A stretch of DNA of 34,033 nt, from assembly GCA_043819555.1 (NCBI GenBank), contig JBDREQ010000019.1, forward strand, positions 1-34,033, written 5' to 3'. Origin of the DNA: Candidatus Zixiibacteriota bacterium. Lineage in GTDB: Bacteria > Zixibacteria > MSB-5A5 > GN15 > JAAZOE01. Position numbers and translations under genes: made by a program. Below, piece by piece: positions 3,912-31,102 of this stretch. Position 1 is the first letter of the stretch, and the number at the start of each line of letters is the position of its first letter. The notes beneath the pieces are model-generated. The model had not been told where the DNA came from. It made no database searches and worked only from the letters and a program-made list of their open reading frames with translations.

Positions 3912-3980
3912 CAAAAAAACCTCCTCTTTCGATAAGATTCAAGTTTATGGCGGGCTCTTACTAACGGCTTTGGAATTTTC
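3912..3980 (+). repeat. Dispersed att-like motif, family A copy 1
   Basis: A CAAAAAA(A)CCTCCTCTT-x-CGA leader is shared with 20459. The TGGCGGG core (3948) aligns without gaps to the other family A copies. Confidence 0.6.
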
Positions 3981-4105
3981 CTGATCGCAGAGTTCTAATA
4001 AGCAGGTTGGTGGAATTAGCCGACGTTGATAAAAGGTATGCAAATAAGCCACGACATATGAACTCAAGTAAATTGCAGGGTGCGGCCGGAGTAAAAGATC
4101 GCTAA

Positions 4106-4522
4106 TTAGTCAGATGATACGACTGAAAAGGTCGAAACTGGTTCCACGCCATGGGCAGCCCAGGCGATCGCCTGCTCTTCCCAATTGTCAACTTTAGATG
4201 CGTCGATGCGCCGTTCATAGCTGTTCGTTTCTGAGGCAAAAGACAACTGAGTGGCTTGAGCCTTGATAACCGGTGAACGCACGATGACGGCCCTCCGTTG
4301 CAAGCCGTGTTTTTTCGTTAATTGTTCAACATGGCGCAGCAACATCAGAATCTCCGGCCCGGCCGGAATCCATGCCTGTAAATCAACAACTGATGACCAT
4401 GGCTGTTTCTGAGATGACAGAATAGTCTTTACCTCTGATTTAAATCGTAATGCCTCGGCTTCGCTCATCACGCCTGAAAACGTAGTATGATAACCGTAGT
4501 ACGTCTCTTCAATCTTATACAT
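4106..4522 (-). CDS. Hypothetical protein (138 aa, possibly STAS/SpoIIAA-like fold)
   Basis: ATG at 4522 with a GGAGA RBS at 4531-4535. The longer ORF-track start overlaps the next gene. The fold guess rests on the VVDL...RRAVIV...AIAW pattern only. Confidence 0.6.
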   Translation of the reverse strand: MYKIEETYYGYHTTFSGVMSEAEALRFKSEVKTILSSQKQPWSSVVDLQAWIPAGPEILMLLRHVEQLTKKHGLQRRAVIVRSPVIKAQATQLSFASETNSYERRIDASKVDNWEEQAIAWAAHGVEPVSTFSVVSSD

Positions 4523-4616
4523 ATTCAATTTCTCCAATTCGGATCTTCTATAATACTTCTTCGGCCCTAATTGGAAAATCTTGAAATCCTTATCCTGGCC
4601 AAAAGCTAAAATAATT

Positions 4617-5126
4617 CTATTTGGTCGCTGTTCCATCAGAGTTGAATATATCAAGAGCAATCTTCCATTCCCCGTTTTCACGAGTCCAAACGACAACATA
4701 TTTGCCATTTTCTACAGAGCCATCGGCGTTTTTAACCTTTACAATTCCGTAATCATAGGCCATATCATTTGAAGCAGATACGAAGGCGGTTGTGGATTCC
4801 CACGAGATTTCAATCTCTTTAGTACTTATTATTCCTTCCCACGCTGCCTTCAATGCTTCTTTCCCTTGAATCATTTCCGCGCCGGCCGGAAATTGAATTG
4901 CGTCAGCGGCGTGTAAATTCATGATCCAATTAAGATCGCCTTCAGCTAACTTATCCGACCACATATTCGCAAGAACCATGATCTTATCTGATTCGGCTAC
5001 GATTTTTTCCGAGTTTTCATTATGGGCCATTATGATTACATTGTTAAGAGCAGTCAATGAAAGGAGGACTGCCACCGTAATGGCTATTAGGGTGAACGGT
5101 CTATGGGGCTTTAGAAATATCATCAT
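4617..5126 (-). CDS. NTF2-like (DUF4440/YybH/SnoaL-type) protein with N-terminal signal or anchor
   Basis: ADAIQFP...IQGKEA...DMAYDYG...GKYVVVWTRENGEWKIALDIFN pattern; GGAGT RBS at 5131-5135. Confidence 0.85.
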   Translation of the reverse strand: MMIFLKPHRPFTLIAITVAVLLSLTALNNVIIMAHNENSEKIVAESDKIMVLANMWSDKLAEGDLNWIMNLHAADAIQFPAGAEMIQGKEALKAAWEGIISTKEIEISWESTTAFVSASNDMAYDYGIVKVKNADGSVENGKYVVVWTRENGEWKIALDIFNSDGTATK

Positions 5127-5490
5127 AAAAACTCCATTGCAATTTTTGTTATTCCTCATAAGATTCTAATATCAAACGGTTAGATATGAATTCTTAATAT
5201 GGATAGAATTCCTTCGATAAGCAAGAGTGTATTTGTTATTCGATTATCTCGAAGCAATGGCAGGGATGAGAGAGCTCGATGGATGCCAATACGTGAAGCA
5301 GAGAAGTTCAATTTATTGCGGAGTTGTGATATAAAAAAGGCGGGCATCATTCAACGGATTTTGTTACTTACTACAAATTGCCTTTACACATATAGCCCAA
5401 ATATCATTCTCGGAAAACACTTGTTGAATTCAGGATTCCAATGCGGTTGTTCTTTGAGGTAATTAGTGAAAACCGTTGTAAAGTATAAGA

Positions 5491-6183
5491 TTAAATGTCT
5501 AACCCGGCCAAAAATATCAATGAATAGTATATACCGATGAGTATGAAGGCCACTGCCGTTAACCGCCGTGCCCATTTTTCGAAAACCCTGATCTTATTGA
5601 ACAAAGATCCTACATATCTGGCTCCAAGAGCAATTAACACAGCAAATACAACAACAGGCAAGGCAGTACCGATTCCATAAACGGTCGGCATGACAATTGA
5701 TGACTGGTGATCAATGGCGAGAGGGATGAGACTGCCGAAGAAAAGCGCTGCGGATATCGGGCAAAAAGACAATGAAAATAGTAGCCCAAGTGCGCCTGCT
5801 CCCCAGATACCCCGCCTTTCGATTCGAGTGGTAAGTTTTTCGCTAACCCCAAAACCGGGCAGTTTGAGATTAAAGATGCCCAATAAAAGCACTCCCACTA
5901 CGATCAGGATCGGACCGAGGGCCTTGTTCATATTTTGTTGGAGAAACATGGCAATTTCGGGAATGGACAAGACACTCATCACCACCATCACTCCAAGCAC
6001 AATATACGTCACCATACGGCCGACTGTGTACATGAGGCCTGACAACAACACCATGCCAGGCCTATCAACCCGTTTACCAATGTAACTGATCGCGGCGATA
6101 TTAGTGGCCAAAGGGCATGGCGATATTGAAGTAAGAATTCCCAGCCAGACAGCGGAACCCAAAGCAAGGAAATAGCTGTCCAT
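5491..6183 (-). CDS. CcdA/DsbD-like membrane protein, ArsG-type family
   Basis: About 6 TM segments with paired Cys motifs SPCPLATNIAAISY and LSFCP; last gene of the ars-type operon. Confidence 0.8.
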   Translation of the reverse strand: MDSYFLALGSAVWLGILTSISPCPLATNIAAISYIGKRVDRPGMVLLSGLMYTVGRMVTYIVLGVMVVMSVLSIPEIAMFLQQNMNKALGPILIVVGVLLLGIFNLKLPGFGVSEKLTTRIERRGIWGAGALGLLFSLSFCPISAALFFGSLIPLAIDHQSSIVMPTVYGIGTALPVVVFAVLIALGARYVGSLFNKIRVFEKWARRLTAVAFILIGIYYSLIFLAGLDI

Positions 6184-6184
6184 G

Positions 6185-6670
6185 CTACTCTTCTTCTTCG
6201 TGATTCTTGAACTTCTGCACTTCCATCTGAACGTAAGCTATAAACTTCTCCTTGTTTCCAACCAATTGCCAAATTTTATCCAGGTTCTTCCACTCTGTTT
6301 CCCTGCCACCATTCTGTCTTGATAGGATCAACGACTGGCTATACAGTTGATAATCTTTGGCAAAATGCTCGTTGCCCTTTTGTTCGAAGTTCTCGACTTG
6401 CCAAATAACGCTGCTGTCTTTCAACTGCTCGGGAAATCCGGATAATATCGCTTCCTGAGAATATGATTCCAGCTTCCCACATGTCATACATCGTCTATTC
6501 ATATGAAGATAATAGACAACGATCCGATCTGATTCCTGAGACTTTTTTGCTGTGGCTTCCTTCGCTTCGGTGGCGTCTGCCGGCTGAACCGCTGGAGAAT
6601 CTTCGGCGATTATGGCTGCAGTTGATAAAAGCAGCATCAGGCCGACTGCAATAATAGTAACTTTCTTCAT
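6185..6670 (-). CDS. Exported thioredoxin-fold CxxC protein, ArsF-type family
   Basis: Signal peptide MKKVTIIAVGLMLLLSTAAIIA; VYYLHMNRRCMTC motif; WKNLDKIW near the C-terminus. Confidence 0.75.
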   Translation of the reverse strand: MKKVTIIAVGLMLLLSTAAIIAEDSPAVQPADATEAKEATAKKSQESDRIVVYYLHMNRRCMTCGKLESYSQEAILSGFPEQLKDSSVIWQVENFEQKGNEHFAKDYQLYSQSLILSRQNGGRETEWKNLDKIWQLVGNKEKFIAYVQMEVQKFKNHEEEE

Positions 6671-6698
6671 TTTTACCTCTCATCGTTCTACTATTTTA

Positions 6699-6932
6699 TT
6701 AACTAATCATCAGCTTGATATCATCCAGCGAGGGTACTTTACCGGTCACTTTAACTTGACCATCGACAACAAGTGCCGGTGTCATCATTACGCCGTAGCT
6801 AATTATCCGCTGGATATCAGTGATTTTTTCGACAGAACATTCCAATCCGAGTTCCTGAACAGCAAGCTCTGTCTGCTTCATCAACTCCTGACACTTTGGA
6901 CACCCGGGGCCGAGCACTTTTACTTCTTTCAT
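6699..6932 (-). CDS. Small redox-active disulfide protein (MTH895/ArsE-type thioredoxin family)
   Basis: MKEVKVLGPGCPKC...YGVMMTPALVVDG; start at 6932 behind a GGAGA RBS. Confidence 0.9.
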   Translation of the reverse strand: MKEVKVLGPGCPKCQELMKQTELAVQELGLECSVEKITDIQRIISYGVMMTPALVVDGQVKVTGKVPSLDDIKLMIS

Positions 6933-6948
6933 CAATATTCTCCTTCTA

Positions 6949-8244
6949 TTATAATGCTCCATAGATAATTCCGGTAATGGTTGCCATAACTATTACCAAC
7001 GACACAAAGACAAATGTTTTCTTCGTACCCATGACTGATCTTATAACCAGCATGTTTGGAAGTGATAAGGCCGGTCCGGCCAGCAACAAGGCCAATGCTG
7101 GACCTTTGCCCATACCATTGCCAACCAGCCCCCGGATGATTGGAACTTCAGTAAGAGTGGCAAAGTACATAAACGCTCCAACCACCGAAGCAAACAGATT
7201 CGAAGTGAGCGAATTTCCTCCAACTAAACTGCTGATCCACTCTGACGGAATCAATCCCTCCTGACCCTGTCTCCCCAACAAAAGCCCTGCAACCAGAACA
7301 CCAGTGAACAGAAGTGGCAGGATCTTCTTGGCAAAATCCCAGGTCTGAGAAAACCATTCGGCAGATTCATCTTTGCGACAACTCAATATCAATGAAAGCC
7401 CAATAACTCCAGCAGAAAACGCCAGAAGCGGTTCGTGGGGGAAAAGCAACGCAACGGCTGCCGTAATGAGGCCGGTGAGCATGACCTGAATTTTGGACAG
7501 CTTGAACCAGAAAATGAGGATCACGCCAAGCCCAATTGAAGTGATACTGGTAATTATCCATTTATATGAGTAAATAAGAAACCATACACTGTACGTATCC
7601 TCCGGCTGGCCCCAGTTAGCAAATACCAGAATCGCAGTCATCGCAGCGAAATAAACTCCATTTTGCCAGAGTGGCCGAGTAACATCCGATTCCGGCATAG
7701 CCATTTGAGTATTGACCTTTTTCATTTCATCTTTGCGATAGATCAGGTGCATCAGCAATCCGATAACCACGCTAAAGACGATAGCGCCAATGGCTCTCGC
7801 TATGCCCAACTCAAGGCCAAGAATACGAGCGGTAAGCACAATGGCAAGGACATTGATTGCCGGACCAGAATAAAGAAAGGCGGTGGCCGGTCCCAGACCG
7901 GCTCCCATGCGATAAATACCTGCAAAAAGAGGTAGCACTGTACATGAACAAACGGCCAGGATCAGTCCGGATACCGACGCCACACCGTAGGAAAGTACTT
8001 TATTTGCCCTGGCTCCGAGGTATTTCATCACCGATGCCTGGCTAACAAATACTGCCATTGCTCCAGCGATGAAGAACGCCGGTATCAGACATAATATGAC
8101 ATGCTCCTGCGCATACCACTTGGCTAATGCCAGGGCTTCGATCACGGCGCCCTTCATCCGAGGACTATCTATGGGGAGGTAAAATAAAACCAGGAAAACC
8201 GAGACTATCCACGTTAACGGTTTCCATTCGGCCTTCCAATTCAA
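6949..8244 (-). CDS. arsP: ArsP/DUF318-family permease
   Basis: Polytopic membrane protein with AVCSCTVLP, FLYSGPAIN, YFATLTEVP and LLAGPALSLP motifs; TTG start with a GAGGAG RBS. Confidence 0.85.
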   Translation of the reverse strand: MNWKAEWKPLTWIVSVFLVLFYLPIDSPRMKGAVIEALALAKWYAQEHVILCLIPAFFIAGAMAVFVSQASVMKYLGARANKVLSYGVASVSGLILAVCSCTVLPLFAGIYRMGAGLGPATAFLYSGPAINVLAIVLTARILGLELGIARAIGAIVFSVVIGLLMHLIYRKDEMKKVNTQMAMPESDVTRPLWQNGVYFAAMTAILVFANWGQPEDTYSVWFLIYSYKWIITSITSIGLGVILIFWFKLSKIQVMLTGLITAAVALLFPHEPLLAFSAGVIGLSLILSCRKDESAEWFSQTWDFAKKILPLLFTGVLVAGLLLGRQGQEGLIPSEWISSLVGGNSLTSNLFASVVGAFMYFATLTEVPIIRGLVGNGMGKGPALALLLAGPALSLPNMLVIRSVMGTKKTFVFVSLVIVMATITGIIYGAL

Positions 8245-8320
8245 TTGACCTACTCCTCATTGTGGACTGACATCATCCAAGATGATTGACAAAACAGCCA
8301 CATACCGCTGCCAGAAAATT

Positions 8321-8653
8321 CTAACGGGCTGCAACCTTTCGAGCTTCCCTAACGTTTGCTCTAAGAACATCCTCAACACAGCCAAAGAATTTCAAAATGC
8401 AGGGCATTCTAAGATTGTACCAGACCTGTAGCCCCCGTTTCTCATCTTCAACGATCCCAGCTTGCTTTAATACCGATAAATGTTTTGAGACGGTCGAGAT
8501 ATCGACTCCGATCATATCTCGGAGTTCACAAACGCACCGTTCACCCTTTGAGAGTTCATCGACAATGAACAGCCTGGTAGGATGCGCCATGGCCTTGATG
8601 ATCTGTGCTCGGGCTTCGTATTTCTGTTTAGTTCTGCTATCCATACTCATCAT
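8321..8653 (-). CDS. arsR: ArsR/SmtB-family metalloregulatory repressor
   Basis: KAMAHPTRL...ERCVCEL...STVSKHLSVLK; CVC metalloid-binding motif plus two C-terminal Cys. The start could be 8653, 8650 or 8644. Confidence 0.9.
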   Translation of the reverse strand: MMSMDSRTKQKYEARAQIIKAMAHPTRLFIVDELSKGERCVCELRDMIGVDISTVSKHLSVLKQAGIVEDEKRGLQVWYNLRMPCILKFFGCVEDVLRANVREARKVAAR

Positions 8654-8673
8654 TATACCTTTATCCGCTTTGT

Positions 8674-8709
8674 TAGTTGGCAAAATAACCAAATACTATA
8701 AAATGTCAA
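8674..8709 (-). promoter_or_regulatory. Putative arsR promoter with overlapping ArsR operator
   Basis: Minus-strand TTGACA (8709-8704), 16-nt spacer, then TATTTT (8687-8682). An imperfect inverted repeat TAGTTGG-N8-CCAAATA (8674-8695) covers the -10 box. Confidence 0.55.
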
Positions 8710-9027
8710 TAGGAAGTTTTCTGAGAATGAGATTTAGTTTGGATATATGTGGCAACCGACTCGCAGTCAAAAGAATATAAAAAACGCGAACTTCGAGACG
8801 AGTTCATCAACGGGGTTAAAGGAATTTCATCGGCGTAAGAAAAAAAACTATCGTAAAATGTGAATGACCGGGGAAGAAAGTTCTGCAAATAGTTGGTGTG
8901 TATAAAGAAATGTTTTATATTCACTGCCAAAGAGATGGTTTGGCAAATATGACTGTGCCATTAATGTTTAGATAACATATGATTTGTTACGGGGAAAATA
9001 TGAAATGAAAAGAAAGGGAACGACTAT

Positions 9028-10146
9028 ATGATTAAAGCGGATAAATCTGTCGTAATGATAGCGGCAGTGGTCTGTTTTTCCGGTTCGGCTATGGCTGGGA
9101 ATTGGTATGACGATGTTAAAGTGAAAGGCGACCTGCGGTATCGCCACGAAATGATTAAGGATGGAAAAAACGTTGCCCGGCACAGGCAACGGATTAGAGC
9201 CAGATTTGGCATTTATGCCAAGGCAAACGAGATGTTTGATATAGGTATTCAACTTGCGACCGGTTCGTCTGACCCGGTTTCTACCAATCAAACCTTGGAT
9301 GGAGCTTTTTCGACCAAAAGCATAGGTCTTGATATGGCCTATTTCGATTTTAATCATGAAAAAGCGCCGGCGCTGACAGTTACCGCCGGCAAATTCAAAA
9401 ATCCTTTCTTCAAAGCGGGCAGTTCCGAGCTGATTTGGGACTCCGATTGGAATCCTGAAGGCGGCGCGGTTAAAATTAATAAATCCGATGATAATTACGA
9501 AATAAATCTCATCGGGGCCGGTTTGTGGATTGAGGAACGGTCATCGTCGGATGATTCATATATAGCCGTCGGACAGGGCATGGCCAAATTCAAATTCAAC
9601 GAGAAAAAATCAAGTGTGGCTTTTGGCGTCGGTTTCTTCAATTATGCCAATACCCAGGGATTTGGGTTTTTCTTTGACGATGAAAATCCGATGGGTAATT
9701 CCCATGTTGACGTTGTTAACGGCGGTGATACAACCAGTGTTTACGCAAATGACTATGATCTGATCGAACTGTCCATCGAGGCCTCGCACAAATTTGAATC
9801 AACTCCGGTTACTGTAATGGGAGATTATGTAAAAAACTCAGCGGCAGATAGTCTCGATACCGGCTGGTTGGTCGGATTACTGGTTGGCAAAACCAAAGAT
9901 GCCGGTTCTTGGGATTTTCGATATATCTATCGCGAAGTTAAAAAAGATGCCGTATTAGGTATGTTTACCGATTCTGACTTCCGCGGCGGCGGTACTGATG
10001 CTAAAGGCCATGAAATTGGCGGAAGCTGCCAATTGGCTTCCAATGCCACTTTCAGCGTTTCATATTTAATTAGTGAAACCGGCCTTGAATCAACCGAACT
10101 GGTAGATTACAAAAAACTGCAGGTTGACCTGCAATTGAAATTTTAG
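9028..10146 (+). CDS. Putative outer-membrane porin (phosphate-operon-associated beta-barrel)
   Basis: Signal peptide, GDLRYRHE, RQRIRAR, DPVSTNQTL, LIWDSDWNPEG and a terminal Phe (QVDLQLKF); first gene of the pst operon. Confidence 0.85.
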   Translation: MIKADKSVVMIAAVVCFSGSAMAGNWYDDVKVKGDLRYRHEMIKDGKNVARHRQRIRARFGIYAKANEMFDIGIQLATGSSDPVSTNQTLDGAFSTKSIGLDMAYFDFNHEKAPALTVTAGKFKNPFFKAGSSELIWDSDWNPEGGAVKINKSDDNYEINLIGAGLWIEERSSSDDSYIAVGQGMAKFKFNEKKSSVAFGVGFFNYANTQGFGFFFDDENPMGNSHVDVVNGGDTTSVYANDYDLIELSIEASHKFESTPVTVMGDYVKNSAADSLDTGWLVGLLVGKTKDAGSWDFRYIYREVKKDAVLGMFTDSDFRGGGTDAKGHEIGGSCQLASNATFSVSYLISETGLESTELVDYKKLQVDLQLKF

Positions 10147-10155
10147 GAAGCCACA

Positions 10156-11007
10156 ATGAAGAAATTGATGTTGATAATTCTGGCATCGGCAATAGCGGCA
10201 AGCGTTGTAAGCGCCGGATCAAACATTACAATTAAGGGCTCTGACACGCTTGTCAGACTCGGTCAAAGGTGGGCCGAAGAATATATGAAGAAAAATACGG
10301 AAGCTGTTATCCAGGTTTCGGGCGGTGGTTCCGGAACAGGGATTGCGGCTCTCCTAAATGGCGCTACCGATATTTGCGAAGCTTCCCGGGATATGAAAGA
10401 AAAGGAATACAAACTGGCTGAGCAAAAAGGTATCAAACCCTATCGGATTTCAGTGGCACTTGATGGAATAGCTGTTTTCCTAAACGAGAAAAATAAAATC
10501 AAAAATTTAAACTTTGCCCAACTTAAGGGTATTTACACTGGCGCTATTACCAATTGGAAAGAAGTCGGCGGAAATGATGCCAGGATTATTATTTATAGCC
10601 GCGAAAACAATTCCGGAACCTATGCTTTCTTCAAGGAAGAAGTATTGAATAAAGAAGATTATTCGGATTATACACAGACTCTTCCCGGGACAGCCGCCGT
10701 TGTTAACGCCATTGCCAATGACAAAAACGGTATCGGTTATGGCGGCATTGCCTGGGCTAAAGGTGTAAAATACGCTTCCGTTGCCAAGGATGAAAAAAGT
10801 GAATATGTCGAGCCTTCTACTGAATCTGTGTCCGATGGAAGTTATCCGATTTCAAGAGATTTGTACTGGTTTTTTAATGGAAAACCTGCCGGTGAATTGA
10901 AAAAGTTGGTTAATTGGGCATTATCGGAAGAGGGTCAGAAGGTCGCCGCTGATATTGATTACGTCCCGCTTTCCAAAGAACGGGCAATGGCAAGTTTGAT
11001 AAAATAG
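10156..11007 (+). CDS. pstS: Phosphate ABC transporter substrate-binding protein
   Basis: IKGSDT, GGGSGTGI, SRENNSGT, YPISRDLY motifs. Confidence 0.95.
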   Translation: MKKLMLIILASAIAASVVSAGSNITIKGSDTLVRLGQRWAEEYMKKNTEAVIQVSGGGSGTGIAALLNGATDICEASRDMKEKEYKLAEQKGIKPYRISVALDGIAVFLNEKNKIKNLNFAQLKGIYTGAITNWKEVGGNDARIIIYSRENNSGTYAFFKEEVLNKEDYSDYTQTLPGTAAVVNAIANDKNGIGYGGIAWAKGVKYASVAKDEKSEYVEPSTESVSDGSYPISRDLYWFFNGKPAGELKKLVNWALSEEGQKVAADIDYVPLSKERAMASLIK

Positions 11008-11022
11008 GAATCAAATTCTTCT

Positions 11023-14502: not shown

Positions 14503-14572
14503 AATCAATAACTTATAGGTAGACAGGCCCAGAATAATATGGTGGAGCTCCTTATGGGAATTTTGCGAATAT
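14503..14572 (+). repeat. Dispersed att-like motif, family A copy 2 (degenerate), with an IHF-consensus site
   Basis: TGGTGGAGCTCCTTATGGGAATTTTGCGAA at 14540 aligns without gaps to the family. AATCAATAACTTA (14503-14515) fits WATCAANNNNTTR. Confidence 0.45.
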
Positions 14573-14699
14573 TCACAATTTAAAACAATTTATGGTGGTC
14601 TAAGAAAATATTTGTTATGAATATTGTTCCTCCTATATTTAAAATACAAAAGCAAACAGTCTTGACGACGAATTGAAGTTATTTATACGGGATACAATT

Positions 14700-16665: not shown

Positions 16666-16760
16666 CCCAAGATCACACTCCCCATACTTTTGTGGAATTC
16701 AATGTTTAGGTGGAAACAGCCTATGTGACAACAAGCGAAACTCTTTGGAGGGGAATTGGA
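16666..16760 (+). repeat. ~95-bp dispersed repeat, family B copy 1
   Basis: Ungapped manual alignment to 17421-17515 gives about 59/95 identities. Confidence 0.65.
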
Positions 16761-17416: not shown

Positions 17417-17511
17417 CGGCCCCAATATAACCCTCCCCAAACTTCTGTGAACTTCCAGTTTCCAGTGCGGTGATACTATGCCACCATCAATAGAACTTGA
17501 TGGAAGACAAT
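17417..17511 (+). repeat. ~95-bp dispersed repeat, family B copy 2
   Basis: Ungapped manual alignment to 19327-19421 gives about 71/95 identities. Confidence 0.8.
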
Positions 17512-18481: not shown

Positions 18482-18514
18482 TGGCGGGGATCAATAGACG
18501 AATTTTGCGACCTT
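18482..18514 (+). repeat. Dispersed att-like motif, family A copy 3
   Basis: TGGCGGGGATCAATAGACGAATTTTGCGACCTT has 27/33 identities with 31070-31102. Confidence 0.7.
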
Positions 18515-18648
18515 TTAAGATATTAATGGGTCACTACAGCTGTAAATGAATTGGCAAAAGAACTTGTTAAATTGTGAAGTTTCGTAAATGCTTGCGGATT
18601 TTCGCCAAACCAAAATAAATTTTCTATCCCCGATACCTACGGTAACTG

Positions 18649-19029: not shown

Positions 19030-19326
19030 TGGAATTTCTCCTGAGCCTGTACATCACTTTCCTGCCTGCAGTCAGCTGTATTCTTGCCAGTCCTAATAGG
19101 TCTTCACCGTGGTTTCACTTGATTAATTGTTGTCCAAAGGGAATTTGTGCAAATCAGAGTTCATGCTCTTGTCATTGTCCAGATGTTCAGACACAAGCAT
19201 ATCCCTATTGACCTTAACAAAATAAACAAAAATATGTGATTCATCAACAATAAATATGGTTAAATCAATCTCTGAATAGTGTTGCTCCACTTAAAAAAAA
19301 CCATTGCAATGGCATGAAAGTCAAAG

Positions 19327-19421
19327 CGGCCCCAATATCACTCTCAGAAAACTTATGTGACCTTCCAATTCGATGTTCAGTTACACTATGCTGCAGTCAA
19401 TGGAACTCGTTGGAAAACAAT
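19327..19421 (+). repeat. ~95-bp dispersed repeat, family B copy 3
   Basis: About 75% ungapped identity to copy 2. Confidence 0.8.
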
Positions 19422-20458: not shown

Positions 20459-20526
20459 CAAAAAACCTCCTCTTGCGAGAAGGTCAAATTAAATGGCGGG
20501 GGCTACGAGACGAGCTCTTCAACCGG
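20459..20526 (+). repeat. Dispersed att-like motif, family A copy 4
   Basis: Leader AAAAAACCTCCTCTT-x-CGA shared with 3912; core TGGCGGGGGCTACGAGACGAG at 20494. Confidence 0.65.
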
Positions 20527-20792
20527 GTTATTCAAAATACTGCGGCATAATTCGGACAATCGATTCAGCAGTAAGAAGTTAACAATTTCCGGACTATAAG
20601 GATTATTCGTGAAACTTACACGGTTTGTTTAATTGATCATATTAATGGGCAATTAACTCAAATCGGTTTTCCACCTTTTTGATTAGAAATCGCAATTTTG
20701 AAGCGGCCTATTGCTGAATTTGGGGAAATAGACTATCTTATATGGGATGATGAATGATTTATCTTAGCACAAAATGAAGCCGAGGTATAGTT

Positions 20793-24103: not shown

Positions 24104-24158
24104 ACACAAAAGCTGATAGAAAAAATATGTAAATAGAAAAGGCAAGGAGATAGATGAT

Positions 24159-24461: not shown

Positions 24462-24512
24462 AATAGAGCGGTATAAATTTAGAACCTGATTGATAATTAA
24501 AAGGTAACAAAA

Positions 24513-25364
24513 ATGATCAATACTAATGTTGTTGATGGAGGCAAGAGTGCCTCAAAGGATCAAGGCGGTCTGATATCGACATTGGAAAAAATACAAGCCA
24601 AATATGGCTATCTTCCTGAAGAAGAATTGCGGCGTGTTTCGCAAGATGATGGGTTGTCTTTGGTTGATATTTATGGGGTCGCGACTTTTTATAAGGCTTT
24701 TAGTTTAAAGCCAAGAGGGAAACACCTCATTTCGGCATGTTTGGGAACCGCCTGTCATGTTCGCGGCGGCCCGGTGATTGCCAAAGAAATTGAAAAGCAA
24801 CTGAATATAAAATCAGGGGAGACTACTCCCGATGGTGAGTTCACGCTGGAAACTGTGAATTGTCTTGGAGCCTGCGCCCTTGGGCCTGTCGTTGTTGTTG
24901 ATGGCCATTATTTTTCGAACGTGAAGGCTGGGAGAGTTAAAGAAATAATCGAAAAAACTCTGGAAGGATTTGGAGTTGTTGAAACCATATCAGATCAGCG
25001 CGTTTTTCCGATTGAGGTCAGTTGTGCTCGCTGCAATCATAGCTTGATGGATTCCAATCATATCATGGACGGCCATCCCAGCATAAGAGTTACAATATCA
25101 TTTGGCAACAAACACGGCTGGCTTGTCCTATCCAGTGTTTATGGCAGTGATAAGGTTAATCTTCAATATAAAATTCCCCCTGATACCGTCGTCCAGATGT
25201 TCTGTCCCCATTGCCATGCCGAGCTAATCGGCGGAACTGCCTGCCTCCTGTGCGAAGCGCCGATGGTGCCAATGATTGTTCATGGTGGCGGAATCGTTCA
25301 GATTTGCTCTCGTCATGGATGCAAAGGACATTTGCTGGATTTGGGCGGCTCATCCGTTGCATAG
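24513..25364 (+). CDS. HydC/NuoE-like [2Fe-2S] subunit with a Cys-rich C-terminal extension
   Basis: VATFY, CLGTACHVRG, VNCLGAC; extra domain with CARC, CPHC, CLLC and CSRHGCKGH. Confidence 0.9.
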   Translation: MINTNVVDGGKSASKDQGGLISTLEKIQAKYGYLPEEELRRVSQDDGLSLVDIYGVATFYKAFSLKPRGKHLISACLGTACHVRGGPVIAKEIEKQLNIKSGETTPDGEFTLETVNCLGACALGPVVVVDGHYFSNVKAGRVKEIIEKTLEGFGVVETISDQRVFPIEVSCARCNHSLMDSNHIMDGHPSIRVTISFGNKHGWLVLSSVYGSDKVNLQYKIPPDTVVQMFCPHCHAELIGGTACLLCEAPMVPMIVHGGGIVQICSRHGCKGHLLDLGGSSVA

Positions 25365-25400
25365 GCCGGGTTAAACTTCGCTTTTAGGAGAGATTAATAG

Positions 25401-28400
25401 ATGGAAAAACTTACAATGATTGACGGACTTCGTGATTTCCGCGATCGTATTTTAAGTGAAAAAGATATCGAATACGACAAACCTACTTTGGTTATATGCG
25501 GTGGGACGGGTGGGCTGGCAAGCGGCGCTAACGATGTTATCCGGGCCATCAAGCGTTACATGATTGAACGCAATCTGCAGGGCAAACTTGCCATCAGGAT
25601 TACTGGTTGCCAGGGGTTCTGTGAAATGGATCCTTTTATACTGGTGAAGCCGGGAAGCCATTTGTATCCCCGGCTCAAAATGAGTGATGTGCCGATGGTC
25701 ATAGACGCCGCCATGGGCGGCTATGTCGCGGAAAGTCTGATTTATAAGGATTCCAAAAAGAAAGAAATAATTAAAACCCAGAATGATATTCCCTTCTTTA
25801 AAAAACAGACCAGGACCATTCTGGGATTTAACGAACATATCGATCCTATTCGAATTTACAATTATATAGAGCAGGGTGGATATGCCGCGGCCGAAAAAGT
25901 TCTATCCAATCCCGATCCCCAATCGATAATTGATGAGGTTCAAAAGGCTGGAATAAGAGGTCGCGGCGGAGCCGGTTTCCCCACCGGGAAAAAATGGGAA
26001 TTTGCGCATAAATCAGGAAAACCAGGCGAACAGAAATATATAATCTGCAATGCCGATGAAGGCGATCCAGGAGCATATATGGATCGCAGTCTGCTGGAAG
26101 GCAACCCCCATATGATAATTGAGGGAATGCTGGTCGCAGGCGTTGCGATTGGCGCCACAAAAGGCATAATATATGTACGTAGCGAATATCCCCTCGCCAT
26201 AAAACATGCTCTGATTGCCCTCAGGCAGGCCCGTGAGCTGGGAGTTCTCGGACAAAATATTCTGGGCACCGGCATTGATTTTGATATTGAAATATTCCGC
26301 GGAGCGGGAGCCTTTGTCTGCGGCGAAGAAACGGCCCTGATTAAATCAATCGAAAATATGATGGGTGAACCCAGACAGCGTCCTCCCTTTCCGATTGAAA
26401 AAGGACTCTGGGGCCATCCCACTTGTATTAACAACGTCGAAACGCTGGCCAATATTCCTGTCATTATAAATAATGGCGGCGAAGAGTATGCCAAAGTGGG
26501 CATCCCGGGAAATACGGGGACCAAAATATTCTCCCTTGTCGGCAAAATCAGGAATACGGGATTGGTCGAAGTTCCTCTGGGAACCAAAATTAGTGAAGTT
26601 GTTTATGATATCGGCGGCGGCGCGGTAGGAAACGGCAAAATAAAGGCCGTACAGACCGGCGGTCCCTCAGGGGGCTGCATTCCGGCCCATCTGTTTGATA
26701 TGTCAATCGATTATGACAGTCTGGCCGCAGCCGGATCAATCATGGGCTCGGGCGGCATGATTGTCATGGATGATAATACTTGCATGATAGATGTCGCCAA
26801 ATATTTCATGAATTTTCTGAGAGATGAATCATGCGGCAAATGCTTTACCTGCCGCAAGGGTACCCAGCGCATGTATGAAATCCTTGATGACATTTCACGA
26901 GGCCGGGCGACCCTGGCTGATCTGGATCTCCTCGAGGAATTGGCTCTTGTTGTAAAAGATACGACCATGTGTGGTCTGGGCCAGTCCGCCTCCAATCCGG
27001 TTCTAAGCACTCTGCGCTATTTCCGCCATGAATATGAACGCCATATCATCGATAAAAAATGTGACGCCTTTGTCTGCAAGGAATTGGTCGGCTCGCCGTG
27101 CCAGTCGGCCTGTCCGGTCGGGACGGAGGTGTGGCGCTACGTCGCTCATATAGAGAGAGGCGAATTTGATGAGGCCTATCTGACGATTCGCGAGGCCAAT
27201 CCGTTCCCATCAATTTGCGCGCGGGTCTGCAATCATCCCTGCGAATCACGATGCCGGGCGGGCGTCTCCGGAGGCGATCCAATTGCTATCCGTTCCCTTA
27301 AGCGTTTCGTTACCGACCATACGGACCCGGCAATTTACAAACCGGAAATTACCCCCTGGACCAAAGGTGAACCGCCCAGAATCGCGGTTGTCGGATCTGG
27401 CCCGGCAGGTTTAACAACGGCGCACTATCTCTCACTTATGGGATATAAAGTCACAATTTTTGAATCAGAAGATAAACCGGGCGGAATGCTCTATTGTACC
27501 ATCCCATCCTATCGTCTCCCCAGAAATGTGATCGAAAAAGAAATAGATTCCCTCCTAAATGAAAATATCACCTTGAAATGCAATACGGCATTAGGCAAAG
27601 ATTTTACGGTAGAGGGATTACTTGAAGATGGGTACAAAGCTGTTCTGTTGGCGCTTGGCGCTCACAAGAGCAAACCATTGCGTCTCGAAAATGAGGATAT
27701 TGATGGCGTATATCCGTCAATTCAATTCTTGAAATCTCACAATATCAAGGATAAACCTCTGGCCCAGGGTATGGTGGGCATTATCGGCGGAGGCAATTCA
27801 GCCCTTGATGCCGCCCGAACTGCCTTGCGCCAAAAAGGGATTAAGAGTGTAACTATTCTGTATCGAAGAACGCGGGAAGAGATGCCTGCCTTCGACGAGG
27901 AAATTGAAGCGGCTGTTGAAGAGGGCGTCAAGCTGGTCACGTTAGTTTCGCCGACTAAGATTTTTTCTTCAAATGGAAAACTGAACGCAGTCGAATGCAT
28001 TCAGAATGAACTCGGCGAATATGATTCAAGCGGCCGCCGCCGTCCGGTTCCAAAAGAGGGCACCGAACATACCATTGAACTCGATACCCTTATTGTTGCT
28101 ATTTCGGAGGATACGGGAATTGAATCAGTTGCCCCGGCCAGTCTCAACTTGACCAATTGGAACACAATAAAAACGTCGCCGGAAACTTTACAAACCAATC
28201 TGCCGGGAGTATTTGCTGCTGGCGATGTTATCACAGGTCCAAACACGGTTATAGATGCGATCGCCGACGGTAAAAAGGCGGCGATGATAATTGATCGGTA
28301 TATCAATGGAGTTCAAATGAAACAGGATGCATCAACGGCCTTGCCGCAATTCTATATCGCCCCTGCATCAGATGACGGTGATGAAGGAAAAACAACCAAT

Positions 28401-28583
28401 CGCGTTGCGGCCAGGCACACATCAGCCGAATCCCGAAAAAATAATTTCGAGGAAGTCGAACTTTGTCTATCAGAAAATGAGGCAATATGCGAGGCGGGGA
28501 GATGCTTGCGCTGCGATTTGGAATTCACTCAACCCAAAAATAATGCTAATGAACTAATTCCCGAGGGAGTGAAAGAACTATGA
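25401..28583 (+). CDS. HydB/NuoF-like FMN/NADH subunit fused to a GltD/NfnB-like FAD/NADPH oxidoreductase
   Basis: GRGGAGFP, NADEGDPGAYMDR, GAGAFVCGEETAL, ESCGKCFTCR...CGLG; then PCQSACP, CARVCNHPCESRC, GSGPAG, GGGNSA, YRRT and FAAGD. Confidence 0.92.
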   Translation: MEKLTMIDGLRDFRDRILSEKDIEYDKPTLVICGGTGGLASGANDVIRAIKRYMIERNLQGKLAIRITGCQGFCEMDPFILVKPGSHLYPRLKMSDVPMVIDAAMGGYVAESLIYKDSKKKEIIKTQNDIPFFKKQTRTILGFNEHIDPIRIYNYIEQGGYAAAEKVLSNPDPQSIIDEVQKAGIRGRGGAGFPTGKKWEFAHKSGKPGEQKYIICNADEGDPGAYMDRSLLEGNPHMIIEGMLVAGVAIGATKGIIYVRSEYPLAIKHALIALRQARELGVLGQNILGTGIDFDIEIFRGAGAFVCGEETALIKSIENMMGEPRQRPPFPIEKGLWGHPTCINNVETLANIPVIINNGGEEYAKVGIPGNTGTKIFSLVGKIRNTGLVEVPLGTKISEVVYDIGGGAVGNGKIKAVQTGGPSGGCIPAHLFDMSIDYDSLAAAGSIMGSGGMIVMDDNTCMIDVAKYFMNFLRDESCGKCFTCRKGTQRMYEILDDISRGRATLADLDLLEELALVVKDTTMCGLGQSASNPVLSTLRYFRHEYERHIIDKKCDAFVCKELVGSPCQSACPVGTEVWRYVAHIERGEFDEAYLTIREANPFPSICARVCNHPCESRCRAGVSGGDPIAIRSLKRFVTDHTDPAIYKPEITPWTKGEPPRIAVVGSGPAGLTTAHYLSLMGYKVTIFESEDKPGGMLYCTIPSYRLPRNVIEKEIDSLLNENITLKCNTALGKDFTVEGLLEDGYKAVLLALGAHKSKPLRLENEDIDGVYPSIQFLKSHNIKDKPLAQGMVGIIGGGNSALDAARTALRQKGIKSVTILYRRTREEMPAFDEEIEAAVEEGVKLVTLVSPTKIFSSNGKLNAVECIQNELGEYDSSGRRRPVPKEGTEHTIELDTLIVAISEDTGIESVAPASLNLTNWNTIKTSPETLQTNLPGVFAAGDVITGPNTVIDAIADGKKAAMIIDRYINGVQMKQDASTALPQFYIAPASDDGDEGKTTNRVAARHTSAESRKNNFEEVELCLSENEAICEAGRCLRCDLEFTQPKNNANELIPEGVKEL

Positions 28584-29278
28584 TTAAGATAAATATAAAT
28601 GGCCTTGACCTTTCCGTCGAGCAGGGAACGACAATTCTTGAAGCGGCGCAGTTTTTGGGTTTTCCGATTCCGACTTTGTGCCACATGGAAGGCTTGAAAG
28701 ATTACGGCGCTTGCCGATTGTGCATTGTCGAAATCGGCGAAGGCCCCCGCTCAAAACTGGTTTCATCCTGCACCTATCCTGTCGAGGAAGGACTCAAGGT
28801 GCGAACGGCATCAAAACGAGTCATGCGAGCTCGGAAAATGATACTGGAACTCCTGCTGGCATCATGCCCTCAGTCCAAAATCATTCAGGATTTGGCCTCC
28901 AAATTCGAAGTTCGCCAGCAGCGCTTTCGCCAGGAACATGAAGATTGCATTCTCTGCGGATTATGCGTGAGAATGTGCGAAGAGCAGATGGCTGCCAAGG
29001 CGATTGGATTTCGAGGACGAGGTCGAAACCGCAGCATCGGGACGCCTTTTGATGTCAAATCAGAAGTGTGCCGCTTATGCGGAGGATGTATTTATGTTTG
29101 TCCGGCATGTCAATTGAGATGTACTTATACTGATCCCGATAAAGCAATCTGCGGCGGTTGCGCCAATATCAGCGCACCCTGCATTGAAAAAGAAAAATTT
29201 AACGATATGATGTGTTATATGGATCCCTGCGTGGCTTGCGAAATAGACAAAGAGTCATGCGGGAAAGGAGGAAAATAA
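28580..29278 (+). CDS. HydA/NuoG N-terminal-like FeS subunit ([2Fe-2S] + 2x[4Fe-4S]) without a catalytic domain
   Basis: PTLCH...GACRLC...SSC; CILCGLCVRMC; CRLCGGCIYVCP; nine further Cys in the tail; ATGA overlap with the upstream gene. Confidence 0.9.
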   Translation: MIKININGLDLSVEQGTTILEAAQFLGFPIPTLCHMEGLKDYGACRLCIVEIGEGPRSKLVSSCTYPVEEGLKVRTASKRVMRARKMILELLLASCPQSKIIQDLASKFEVRQQRFRQEHEDCILCGLCVRMCEEQMAAKAIGFRGRGRNRSIGTPFDVKSEVCRLCGGCIYVCPACQLRCTYTDPDKAICGGCANISAPCIEKEKFNDMMCYMDPCVACEIDKESCGKGGK

Positions 29279-29280
29279 GA

Positions 29281-30864
29281 ATGTCATTTACCAGAGTAAA
29301 TGCCTCGGCCGCGACTTTGACCAAGAACAGGACAGAGGATTCCGTTACTCGTCTATCAGGAATGTGCGTCACCTGCGTCGATGGCTGTATCGGAATGTGC
29401 GAAATAGGGAAATCGGCTTATAGAGGTCACGAAGTAATTTATCCCCAACCCTTCGGCGTTATTACGACCGCTTCGGAGAAGTCTTACCCCGTCGATTATT
29501 CTCATTTGAATATTATCGGGGGCGTAATAGGCGCCAAAGGCATTGAAGCCGACAGTGATAAGGCAGTCTTTCCCAATGTCAACCTGGAAGTTCATTTTGG
29601 CCATGATAAAGGAATTAAATTCCGTCTGCCTATAATGATTCCGGGGATCGGTTCTACCGATGTCGCCAAAAATAACTGGGAAGGTCTGGCGATAGGTTCC
29701 GCCCTGGCCGGGACCGGTTTAACGATCGGCGAAAATGTCGTCGGTATGGATACTGAGGCGGTCATCAAGAACGGCCGTGTCGTCGATACCGTTGACCTTA
29801 AACGCCGCGTTAACCTGTTCAAAGATAATCAGCGCGATGGCTACGGCGCGACTATCGTACAAGCCAATATTGAAGATACCCGACTCGGCGTCCAGGAATA
29901 TGCCATCGAAAAACTCGGAGTGGAATGGGTCGAGCTAAAATGGGGTCAGGGCGCCAAAAATATTGGCGGTGAGGTAAAAATCAGAGATCTTAAAAAGGCT
30001 CAAATGCTGTACAAACGGGGTTATGTAGTCCTTCCTAATCCCACCAATCCTGATGTTATCAAGGCCTTTGAACGTGGTACCTTTAAAGAATTTGAGCGGC
30101 ATTCACGGGTCGGCATGGTAACCGAAGAATCATTCGCCAAACGCATTGAAGAGTTGCGCGCGGCGGGCGCCAAGTATATATCACTCAAAACCGGCGCCTA
30201 TCGTCCGGCGGCTCTGGCCCTGGCCTTGAAATTCGCGTCGAAATACAAACTTGACGTTCTTACCGTTGACGGAGCCGGAGGCGGTACAGGAATGAGTCCT
30301 TGGCGTATGATGAACGAGTGGGGCATCCCCCCGGTTGAATTGCATTCGCTCCTTTATAACTATGCCAAAAAACTCGCCGACAGGGGCGAACATATCCCGG
30401 CATTGATTCCAGCTGGTGGGTTTACCTTTGAAGATCAAATATTCAAGGGTCTTGCCCTCGGAGCCCCGTTTGTGAAAATGATCGGAATGGCCCGAGGCCC
30501 GATTGCCGCGGCAATGGTTGGTAAAACCCTTGGACGCACAATTAGCCAGCATCAACTTCCCGTTTATGTCGAGCGATTTGGCACCAGTATAGATGAAGTA
30601 TTCGTGACGGCCGGTGATTTGAGAAAAGAGCTGGGAGATGATGAATTTGAAAAACTGCCAACAGGAGCAATCGGTCTTTATACTTATTACGAACGTTTGG
30701 CACAGGGATTACGTCAATTGATGGCCGGAAGCCGAAAGTTTTCGCTGGAGCATATGACTCGCGATGATTTGATAGCTTTAACGCCCGAAGTTTCGAAAAT
30801 ATCCGGCATTACCTATGTCATGGACGTCGATAAAGAAGAAGCCGAAAAAATCCTGAATGCATAA
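29281..30864 (+). CDS. FMN-binding glutamate synthase family protein (stand-alone FMN barrel)
   Basis: TIGEN, ELKWGQGAK-x-x-GG, DGAGGGTG, EWGIP and AGG motifs; N-terminal CVTCVDGCIGMC. ATG at 29281 behind AGGAGG. Confidence 0.88.
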   Translation: MSFTRVNASAATLTKNRTEDSVTRLSGMCVTCVDGCIGMCEIGKSAYRGHEVIYPQPFGVITTASEKSYPVDYSHLNIIGGVIGAKGIEADSDKAVFPNVNLEVHFGHDKGIKFRLPIMIPGIGSTDVAKNNWEGLAIGSALAGTGLTIGENVVGMDTEAVIKNGRVVDTVDLKRRVNLFKDNQRDGYGATIVQANIEDTRLGVQEYAIEKLGVEWVELKWGQGAKNIGGEVKIRDLKKAQMLYKRGYVVLPNPTNPDVIKAFERGTFKEFERHSRVGMVTEESFAKRIEELRAAGAKYISLKTGAYRPAALALALKFASKYKLDVLTVDGAGGGTGMSPWRMMNEWGIPPVELHSLLYNYAKKLADRGEHIPALIPAGGFTFEDQIFKGLALGAPFVKMIGMARGPIAAAMVGKTLGRTISQHQLPVYVERFGTSIDEVFVTAGDLRKELGDDEFEKLPTGAIGLYTYYERLAQGLRQLMAGSRKFSLEHMTRDDLIALTPEVSKISGITYVMDVDKEEAEKILNA

Positions 30865-30915
30865 TAAAAATATGGCAGACTTTATGTTTGCCATAGCAAC
30901 ATAATCGACTCATTA

Positions 30916-30954
30916 ATGACGCCTCTTGTCTCCTTAAGAGGCGTCATATTTTTT
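30916..30954 (+). terminator. Intrinsic terminator of the redox operon
   Basis: Perfect 12-bp stem ATGACGCCTCTT / AAGAGGCGTCAT followed by ATTTTTT. Confidence 0.85.
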
Positions 30955-31012
30955 CCATTCTTTTTTGAGAATCACAAATTTATAAATCCTGCCCTCAAAA
31001 GGGATGATACTG

Positions 31013-31048
31013 CAAAAAAGAATGCGCCAGGCTGACGCATCCTTTTTT
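31013..31048. terminator. Possible bidirectional terminator
   Basis: AAAAAAG-AATGCG...CGCAT-CCTTTTTT hairpin with A and T runs on both sides, between convergent genes. Confidence 0.5.
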
Positions 31049-31049
31049 G

Positions 31050-31102
31050 TATCAATAAGTTAGAAATTGTGGCGGGGGTCATTATACGAATTTCGCAACT
31101 TT
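31050..31102 (+). repeat. Dispersed att-like motif, family A copy 5, with an IHF-consensus site
   Basis: TATCAATAAGTTA (31050-31062) fits WATCAANNNNTTR; core TGGCGGGGGTCATTATACGAATTTCGCAACTTT at 31070. Confidence 0.7.

Follow-up and report, generated by a model that had tools for sequence, protein, structure and literature searches.

In the SSV-type integration of archaea, attP lies inside the integrase gene; the gene is split and its orphan pieces are found at island borders by a tRNA gene. The SCCmec and other SCC elements employ large serine recombinases (LSRs; CcrAB or CcrC) at the 3' end of rlmH (orfX). ICESt1 and ICESt3 of Streptococcus thermophilus, together with integrative mobilizable elements, are described as undergoing tandem accretion, and decay to cis-mobilizable elements, at one attachment (att) site (PMC5704250). 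The ssrA islands of Dehalococcoides are reported to have a CcrB-like serine recombinase, DsiB, and many direct repeats of the end of the transfer-messenger RNA (tmRNA) gene (PMC3146451), and among the tycheposons of Prochlorococcus 910 of 937 carry tyrosine recombinases and 27 serine recombinases (bioRxiv 10.1101/2020.12.28.424599). Here we consider a stretch of 34,033 nucleotides (nt) from a Candidatus Zixiibacteriota bacterium (contig JBDREQ010000019.1 of assembly GCA_043819555.1; the window), in which short, related sequences recur between gene modules. On the evidence of sequence comparison we think it likely that these copies are attachment-site scars of LSR integrative elements that entered at the 3' end of tRNA-Asp(GTC), in which case the window would be a stack of acquired modules.

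The tails and their link to large serine recombinases and tRNA-Asp

The window is the whole of contig C19 of the source genome, an assembly of 3.35 Mb in 79 contigs, and was compared with 160 genomes of the same order. C-numbers without a G prefix denote contigs of the window's own genome and G-numbers the genomes of relatives. A first-pass annotation of the same DNA had proposed one family of five same-strand copies of an att-like motif, which we name c1 (3948), c2 (14540), c3 (18482), c4 (20494) and c5 (31070); to these we add c6 (5338) and c7 (8782). All five stretches exist, all are intergenic and all lie on the plus strand. As had been noted, c3 and c5 are identical at 27 of 33 bases, and c1 and c4 have a common leader; this leader measures 41 nt, with 80% identity. 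The single family has not survived intact: c3, c5 and c4 are true members, but c4 represents a second variant, c1 is decayed and c2 is unsupported. The proposed consensus is fitted by c3 and c5 at up to three mismatches (two matches in the window, none in 100 shuffles) but not by the other three copies. The integration host factor sites placed before c2 and c5 can be matched, at 14503 and 31050, but at chance level: the window has seven matches where 3.4 +/- 1.9 are expected, and six of 100 shuffles reach seven.

The two variants, V1 and V2, are here called A tails; the B tails are a second putative scar family, seen in the window as 95-nt repeats. Profiles were trained on other genomes only, from 28 copies for V1 and 53 for V2, with profile b2 for tail B. 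The V1 profile recovered c5, a copy at C52:7197-7247 (E 4e-11) and c3, the next best match having an E value of 0.16, and the V2 profile recovered c4 and a further decayed copy, c7, at 8792-8836 (E values of the window copies are given in Table 1). We accept c3, c5 and c4 as true members because they are recovered by profiles built on other genomes alone. A profile built from c3, c5 and the C52 copy and run genome-wide gave E 0.59 for c2, 0.63 for c6 and 8.2 for c4, and c1 was not among its best 25 matches. A fuzzy search of the whole assembly with the consensus found one clear extra copy, on C52, and at seven mismatches also c4 and c6.

The remaining copies are weaker. No match to c1 came from the V1 or V2 DNA profiles, and it is its context that suggests a decayed copy: the leader shared with c4, the same 17-codon frame to a stop, and equivalent copies before typA elsewhere. 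c6 was likewise not recovered by the independent V1 and V2 profiles; it is listed as a possible copy because the B tail at 5395 follows it at a distance of 28 nt, and this order of A then B is seen in several other genomes. c2 was unreported by the independent DNA profiles, had E 5.5 with the peptide profile within the window, and is unsupported as a member at the DNA or peptide level. Peptide profiles are too short and therefore cannot decide weak copies; genome-wide, even c4 reached only E 0.66.

Searches of the genome and its relatives with nucleotide and peptide profiles recovered the tails in the window and in many relatives. The V1 pattern (GGGGNTCNNTANANGAATTTYGCRAC, at most two mismatches) occurs in 29 of the 160 genomes, with no match for the reversed control, the V2 pattern (GGCGGGNNCTACGAGACGANNTNNNCAAC) in 64, with one control match, and the tail peptide profile finds 85, with open frames of up to 148 residues among the matches listed. 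The copies stand mostly in same-strand arrays between modules of one to ten genes in either orientation. In the window's own assembly all A and B tails are confined to C19 and C52; the b2 profile matches 5395, 16666, 17417, 19325 and C52:9572-9665 (minus strand) and nowhere else in the genome. No exact match to the V1 or V2 pattern was found in IMG/VR. On C52 (6433-9665, locus L172) the tails lie on the minus strand, V2 at 6433-6478, V1 at 7196-7247 and B at 9572-9665, and separate tiny modules: a DUF2200 gene, then a nucleotidyltransferase-HEPN pair, an unnamed open reading frame (ORF) and a DUF6933 gene.

The first-pass annotation had read the copies as the orphan tail of a protein, and this idea holds in two respects: the distal half is conserved as protein, and some tails are in frame with a recombinase. 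The conserved block of about 50-60 nt starts sharply at (T/A)(G/A)GCGGGG, and each copy is a start-less mini-ORF, WRGLRDEFRNWVIENAA then stop. The V1 frame (plus strand) reads (W/K)RG(S/W)L(D/Y)EFRNFLMYE... and the V2 frame (W/K)RGLRDxFRNWVIENAA-stop. Of 85 distinct V2 copies from other genomes, 66 reach their first in-frame stop at codon 16-18. In the distal half of these copies the synonymous fraction is 0.41 in the tail frame versus 0.12 and 0.07 in the other frames, and the variability of the third codon position is 0.49 versus 0.25 and 0.18, while the proximal half is nearly invariant at all codon positions. The first half is therefore constrained as DNA and the second as protein. The tail frame has no conserved start codon, stops often occur 0-7 codons upstream, and a tblastn search of the window's own genome with the tail peptides found no host parent gene ending in the tail.

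The first-pass annotation had also asked whether any copy forms the in-frame 3' terminus of a large serine or tyrosine recombinase, and joins to serine recombinases are found for a V1 tail in L013, for a V2 tail in P0003 and in others. In a few copies the in-frame sequence upstream is preserved and has the form ...TYKKPF(D/S)ILAEG....(W/K)RG. The longest, L013:1019-1516, is a 166-residue C-terminal fragment ending in a V1 tail; itself without a Pfam match, it matches ten longer proteins of 353-528 residues at 60-84% identity. Nine of the ten carry PF00239, PF07508 and PF13408, and the 353-residue protein carries PF07508 and PF13408; of the nine that were retrieved, five end exactly in ...KWRG. 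P0003 ends ...KWRGLRDEFINWAIRNLAA and runs on with LRDEFINWAIRNLAA, which is the V2 tail, and P0001 and P0010 continue otherwise. In-frame recombinase ends are kept in L071, L085 and L096 as well, with L071 reading LEYLLKHPEFAESDKKRGLRDEFRNWVIENAA, where the subfamily of the recombinase on contig C67 (described below) is in frame with a V2 tail. In L108 / G131:C4 a full-length recombinase continues in frame into a B tail of the type found at 19325 (...KKWRPQYHSPQTFV...GTRWKTIE-stop). Relatives of the LSR occur in 76 of the 160 genomes.

It had been noted that the window contains no recombinase for the motif. This is correct of the window, but a matching LSR adjoins tRNA-Asp on C67 of the same genome. 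The protein has 517 residues (56290-57840, minus strand), carries PF00239, PF07508 and PF13408, and ends in ...ESDKWRG-stop, ...LEYLIKHPEFAESDKWRG-stop; its stop codon is followed by antisense tRNA sequence, and the tRNA-Asp gene (56221-56298, plus strand) lies tail to tail with it. Homologues with 86-89% identity occur in metagenome-assembled genomes titled Zixibacteria or Ignavibacteriales, and three of the four complete ones overlap tRNA-Asp, with tRNA-Val next. The region around the C67 recombinase (54500-63232, L171) also holds a ThsB-like TIR gene, a caspase-domain gene, a HerA/TrwB-like ATPase, a PD-(D/E)XK nuclease and a DUF2958 gene, a set that looks like defence-type cargo.

The arrangement on C67 is a common one. 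At 15 of the 20 recombinase loci retrieved the recombinase converges at its 3' end with a tRNA gene that it abuts or overlaps (Asp (GTC) at seven, Asn at four, Ser and Gln at two each), and the other five have none. Where tRNA-Asp is the partner the recombinase frame ends in ...KRG-stop or ...KRGRRDSNSRPPA-stop and this end reads antisense tRNA; therefore TGGCGGGG is the reverse complement of CCCCGCCA, the end of tRNA-Asp, which ties the copies to a tRNA 3' end, another possibility that had been raised. When the 44 tRNAs of the window's own genome were compared with both consensuses, tRNA-Asp was best, with scores of 14 and 13 against 8 and 6 for the next. The V2 consensus agrees with tRNA-Asp at 16 of 18 bases, and the likeness fades past the acceptor and the first strand of the T-stem.

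Unoccupied tRNA-Asp genes (G002, G009, G010 and G024) have an intrinsic terminator 8-12 nt past CCA. At occupied genes the recombinase end replaces this terminator; an antisense ORF of at least 488 residues is present at seven of 30 loci, with remnants in G001 and G019. Many orphan tails are preceded by a minus-strand hairpin and U-run (z -4.0 for c4, -5.2 for c5 and -0.9 for the decayed c1). A crude script that sorted 92 tails found on their left side a recombinase remnant in nine, a terminator-like hairpin in 16 and neither in 67. GCGGGGT is the sole sequence common to four kinds of junction, namely empty tRNA, recombinase-tRNA, hairpin-tail and recombinase-tail, and for this reason the crossover is placed, provisionally, within it. 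On this reading the orphan tails behind a hairpin would be attL, the recombinase-tRNA junction attR and the recombinase-tail junction attP-like.

Some further features of the tails were noted. To the eye, the B tail looks like an ESDKKRG-type recombinase 3' end in reverse complement, as the two arms of attP would; when computed, this symmetry gave weak minus-strand b2 matches at four recombinase ends (E 0.007-0.017). For the A tails no half-site inverted-repeat symmetry around a short crossover was found. About 50 nt upstream of the V2 tails in L079, L088, L102 and L103/L041 there is a further conserved block, (C/T)CGTGTATTGAATAGTCC, which in L079 and L041 reads W-I-x-F-R-V-[FL]-N-S-P in the tail frame and recurs left of tails in different genomes. 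L106 (G003:C30) has the tail core in inverted form, GTCGTCTCGCAGACCC, some 40 nt upstream of GGGTCTACGAGACGAC, to the left of its tails at 2961 and 11738.

Arrays, a proposed mechanism and its alternatives

In 14 genomes, by our own collation, the tails lie downstream of the 3' end of tRNA-Asp, on the opposite strand of the same contig (G009, G014, G015, G017, G018, G024, G027, G028, G030, G061, G083, G084, G111 and G116). An island as Islander defines it has a correctly oriented fragment of the target tRNA gene downstream of the full gene, and an integrase between the two. In the window's own genome the tRNA and the tails are on separate contigs, and the tail shares only about 16-18 nt with tRNA-Asp. 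The order on G084:C9 is tRNA-Asp at 128.9 kb, recombinase at 129-130.4 kb, tails at 150.8-175.4 kb and typA at 181 kb, which is the layout of the window flipped. G156 has a V1 tail about 285 nt upstream of typA (E 2e-9) and G003 a weak one, in the same place as c1, beyond a hairpin and about 190 nt of sequence upstream of typA that is conserved. On G131:C4 an internal recombinase is joined to a B tail at 154.6-156.2 kb, upstream of a second recombinase at about 229-230 kb, which abuts tRNA-Asp if G131:C4 and L169 are one record, as their shared length (853,946) would suggest. This arrangement is what an accretion model predicts.

The copies had been said to sit where gene content switches, and comparison with the synteny of relatives bears this out, with the ends of conserved blocks falling beside copies. 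Six blocks are conserved in relatives, mostly on other contigs: 1853-3896, 5555-8695, 9241-14411, 15167-16660, 20707-30952 and 31179-32183. Matches to typA and its upstream region in four relatives stop at 3824-3896, next to c1. The thyX-like block stops in relatives at 16619-16662, before the B tail at 16666; the block conserved in G011:C34 starts at 20707, to the right of c4; and c5 is flanked by the end of the left block at 30952 and the start of an ADH block at 31179. In G001:C27 and G011:C25 the BNR-repeat gene that adjoins c3 likewise has an orthologous tail beside it.

There is also a gradient of preservation. Read from left to right, the scores are 16.9, 29.4, 41.5 and 50.3 bits for the A tails, c1 and c6 being too decayed for a score, and 31.3, 49.4, 65.8 and 74.7 bits for the B tails. 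Scores that rise from the typA side fit the entry of newcomers at the tRNA side, and the B tails of G131 follow the same trend.

The following scheme would account for these observations. The recombinase gene converges on the tRNA gene, tail to tail, and its final codons, K-W/K-R-G (AAA TGG CGG GG), are antisense to CCCCGCCA. In the free element the reading frame would cross the att site into the other arm (P'), which would be the conserved tail; the first 20 nt or so of the tail, fixed as DNA, mimic the tRNA acceptor and T-arm, and the last eight codons or so are fixed as protein only. Integration would split these parts, leaving the recombinase fused to the tRNA (attR) and the tail at the opposite end of the element (attL). 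If the element had entered an unoccupied tRNA gene, the tail would end up behind the displaced terminator hairpin of that tRNA. The regenerated tRNA would be reusable, so that each newcomer would displace older elements from the tRNA and push them outward, while older recombinase genes decayed. The outcome would be a same-strand array of tails between gene modules, with the oldest scars of the window on the left, by typA. C19 would then belong to the tRNA-Asp island of C67, the elements nearest typA would have arrived first, and the system may be active at the present day. The first-pass annotation had itself suggested scars of repeated site-specific integration, for example at an att site within the 3' end of a recombinase, that assembled cargo modules into a tandem array; the joins to LSRs, the tRNA match and the synteny ends back this suggestion.

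A number of observations weigh against this scheme. Besides lacking a recombinase of this LSR family, the window has no tRNA or tmRNA detectable by ARAGORN. A physical link between C19 and C67 is absent from the contig-overlap comparison: C32 alone overlaps C19, at its right end and over 141 nt, and the far end of C67 overlaps no contig of the assembly. No V2 tail is joined to a full-length recombinase in the 160 genomes, the longest open frame that holds a tail having 148 residues, and the proposed form of the free element is drawn from P0003 and fragments. In most descriptions of LSRs attP and attB are identical over a very short stretch, and here about 16-18 nt are shared. A simple model with one tRNA predicts no second displaced terminator, and the leaders of c1 and c4 are 80% alike; nor does the model explain clean loss of the recombinase from the 67 of 92 tails that have neither remnant nor hairpin. 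G084 follows the trend in score only roughly, its gradient being non-monotonic. Homologous modules occur without tails (G011:C34, G156:C82, G003:C12, G011:C21 and G001:C33), and some modules look like ordinary operons (pstSCAB-phoU, and a two-component system with NuoEF/GltD-like genes). Finally, none of 29 relatives has tRNA-Asp within 1.5 kb of typA and an empty site was not found, and in G028 typA lies between tRNA-Asp and a tail.

The tails may be more than scars. An extension of our scheme, which we regard as conceivable but rather unlikely, holds that they are live sites, and that modules are excised or moved as cassettes by a recombinase acting in trans, as on a cis-mobilizable or integron-like serine platform. 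The first 20 nt or so are almost invariant across the families of the order, beyond expectation for dead scars; homologous modules stand in differing contexts in relatives, and the large class of tails with neither remnant nor hairpin on the left points the same way. Precedents for cis-mobilizable elements and accretion are given in PMC5704250 and, for the Dehalococcoides ssrA islands, in PMC3146451. Against this, the copies far from the presumed tRNA end (c1, c6 and c7) are visibly decayed, and the homologous modules of five relatives are without tails. LSRs recombine attP with attB, or attL with attR given a helper, and would not be expected to recombine two like sites.

It is improbable that the tails are displaced or duplicated 3' fragments of tRNA-Asp from islands of tyrosine integrases, with the LSR link incidental. 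The rank of tRNA-Asp as best match among the 44 tRNAs of the genome would suit such an origin, as would a classical 52-nt fragment of tRNA-Asp, 94% identical, on G003:C18 (33719-33770), 13 kb downstream of the full gene (20576-20653) on the same strand; from this fragment it follows that another kind of element may use the same tRNA. The Islander paper (PMC4383910) states that only tyrosine integrases were known at tRNA genes; later work may differ. The tRNA likeness of the tails stops after about 18 nt, however, and the T-loop is not kept; beyond that point the tail is conserved at the protein level, in the recombinase frame and with a conserved stop, tails are in frame with LSR ends, and the LSR overlaps a tRNA at 15 of 20 loci.

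A small RNA, an independent small ORF or a transcription-factor or terminator-associated element, suggested by copies that are intergenic, often beside hairpins and usually past the 3' end of a gene, with the downstream ORF convergent in 22 of the 27 V1 loci that have one, is very improbable given that no Rfam family lies at the copies at E up to 1 (BSnc120, nearby, has E 0.21, far below its gathering score), that the window holds no tRNA or tmRNA and the genome's own tmRNA is unrelated, that the frame has no conserved start and often a stop 0-7 codons upstream, and that copies are few per genome and clustered in one region.

Several established kinds of site were considered and rejected. Promoters (sigma-70, sigma-54 and Bacteroidetes-type -7/-33) misfit in spacing and in the orientation of neighbouring genes. 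A tmRNA origin was set aside, the 5' end of the genome's own tmRNA and its tag GEYDYAMAA being unrelated. An integron attC site has R''/R' boxes, RYYYAAC ... GTTRRRY, in an imperfect inverted repeat of 57-141 nt; its cassettes mostly have one ORF and one direction, and IntI is a tyrosine recombinase. The aligned copies have no paired GTTRRRY box downstream, the modules hold one to ten genes in either direction and the linked enzyme is a serine recombinase, in agreement with the earlier description of an array without attC features. A dif-type site has an 11-6-11 organization with two inverted arms; the likeness to Xer/dif (pdif) sites is one-sided (ATTCGTATAA, minus strand), and the aligned copies lack a second arm.

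If the tails are LSR scars, each recombination event would swap the C-terminal tail of the enzyme. Three recombinase ends occur: ...KWRG-stop or ...KRGRRDSNSRPPA-stop at the tRNA, an additional 14-21 residues (ending -AA, -VA or -SAA, non-polar) with an A tail, and about 30 more with a B tail. The end of the tail resembles a C-terminal degron of the ssrA type. It is a speculative and, we think, doubtful idea, prompted by the selection on the distal half of the A tail as protein, that the tail switches activity, directionality or stability between the free and integrated states. Were it true, it would amount to control of directionality in a serine integrase without a separate directionality factor, and a tail swap at every recombination event makes for a testable idea on the control of direction.

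Features of the window

The tails and associated features are collected in Table 1.

Table 1. Tails, hairpins and an insertion sequence (IS) remnant in the window, from left to right
Feature	Position	Strand	Remarks
Decayed hairpin and U-run, left of c1	3914..3947	-	80% identical over 41 nt to the c4 leader; weak fold, z -0.9; read as displaced tRNA-Asp terminator, B arm of attL
c1, strongly decayed V2-type tail, WRALTNGFGIFLIAEF then stop	3948..3998	+	232 nt upstream of typA; 17-codon frame to stop; read as the outermost, oldest scar
c6, possible decayed V1-type tail	5338..5367	+	7 mismatches to the first-pass consensus; E 0.63 with window-trained profile
B-type tail	5395..5483	+	b2 profile E 5e-7, 31.3 bits
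c7, decayed V2-type tail, KKRELRDEFINGVKGISSA then stop	8782..8838	+	Between arsR-like gene and porin gene; V2 DNA profile 16.9 bits, E 5e-4 among loci searched, 0.0085 genome-wide; peptide E 0.006 within the window
c2, unsupported	14540..14569	+	Directly past the end of the pst-phoU block at 14411
Decayed right end of multi-copy IS, rve-type transposase tail	14563..14670	+	Outside the motif family
B-type tail	16666..16756	+	b2 profile E 1e-12, 49.4 bits
B-type tail	17417..17511	+	b2 profile E 9e-18, 65.8 bits
c3, V1-type tail, WRGSIDEFCDLLRY then stop	18482..18526	+	V1 profile E 8e-7 genome-wide, 29-30 bits
B-type tail, RPQYHSQKTYVTFQFDVQLHYAAVNGTRWKTIR then stop	19325..19421	+	b2 profile E 1e-20, 74.7 bits
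Hairpin and U6, left of c4	20460..20493	-	-14.6 kcal/mol, z -3.96, 0/200 shuffles as stable; read as displaced tRNA-Asp terminator
c4, V2-type tail, WRGLRDELFNRVIQNTAA then stop	20494..20550	+	V2 profile E 1e-11, 41.5 bits; exact V2 pattern match
Hairpin and U-run, left of c5	31015..31069	-	-22.6 kcal/mol, z -5.22, 0/200 shuffles as stable
c5, best preserved V1-type tail, WRGSLYEFRNFLMTENCKVVIQP then stop	31070..31141	+	V1 profile E 7e-13, about 50 bits

Part of c2 overlaps the decayed IS end at 14563-14670, which is about 76% identical to IS ends on C10, C55, C7, C47 and C78, several of them at contig ends. The copies are at C10:48474-48780, the end of C55, the start of C7, the end of C47 and C78:3606-3672, with the transposase tail ...YYNNERYHESLNNITPADMY... 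(rve-like). This multi-copy IS breaks several contigs of the assembly, in which a full copy was not found. A second transposase, of the IS110 family (PF01548 and PF02371), is encoded at 32835-33821; a 31-nt inverted repeat upstream of it (32580-32684) contains TTGGCGGGATCAC, which slightly resembles the motif core, and pieces of the IS110 element are multi-copy in G001, G003 and G156.

The left end of the window, 1-118, recurs with 96-100% identity near the starts or ends of C14, C32, C33, C48, C51, C67, C68 and C72, and, with about 76-81% identity, at the ends of contigs in G084, G156 and G003. This is probably where an unassembled multi-copy element or rRNA operon terminates. At 15171-16523 (minus strand) lies a gene for a 450-residue protein with a partial match to Thy1 (ThyX) and 78-85% DNA identity in G003, G011 and G156; in G156 and G011 the gene is again found inside a tail array. 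The BNR/Ycf48-like gene by c3 (18649-19029 and 18515-18709, both minus strand) encodes 126 residues versus 436-476 in G001:C27 and G011:C25, where the counterparts have many tandem repeats; the window copy looks truncated.

Comparison with known systems

Tandem accretion is a known process; it is the type of recombinase and the layout that are unusual here. Our reading would explain a 30-kb stretch of an uncultured bacterium as layered gene acquisition at one tRNA gene, with scars that give relative dates to the layers. It would also add a family of LSRs that target tRNA genes (Asp, Asn, Ser and Gln) and overlap them tail to tail. Natural LSR/attP/attB triplets with a conserved tRNA target could serve as tools for genome insertion. 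A literature search found no description of a serine recombinase family at tRNA genes with a reading frame across the att site, a result that cannot prove that none exists.

The likeness to the SSV type lies in an att site within the integrase reading frame and in orphan pieces beside a tRNA gene. There the enzyme is a tyrosine recombinase and its gene falls into two large parts, whereas here the last 14-30 codons are swapped and the body of the enzyme stays whole. Like this locus, the SCCmec elements use LSRs, insert at the 3' end of a conserved gene and form composite islands in which direct repeats of the gene end bound the modules; they differ in that the target is a protein gene, rlmH (orfX), and the repeat is the end of the host gene rather than of the recombinase.

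The ssrA islands of Dehalococcoides also have an LSR, a stable-RNA target, insertion in the region of the T-loop, and tandem islands with and without integration modules, and in them the 3' end of the target gene recurs as numerous direct repeats over the next 100 kb downstream. They differ in their tmRNA target, a 20-bp repeat and a second, small recombinase, DsiA, and the part of the report that deals with the islands (PMC3146451) describes neither an overlap of the recombinase frame with its target nor a coding tail in the repeat. The tycheposons, as far as their islands are described, likewise lie by tRNA genes, where newcomers push older elements inward and partial tRNAs and broken integrases mark the older layers, and their cargo includes nutrient-uptake genes; nearly all have tyrosine recombinases and they belong to another phylum. 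With accretion of the ICESt1/ICESt3 type this locus has in common integration at a gene end, decay of the resident, renewed integration and modules set between direct att repeats. Those elements rely mostly on tyrosine integrases, with protein genes or tRNA genes as targets, whereas here the enzyme would be an LSR whose coding tail also serves as the repeat.

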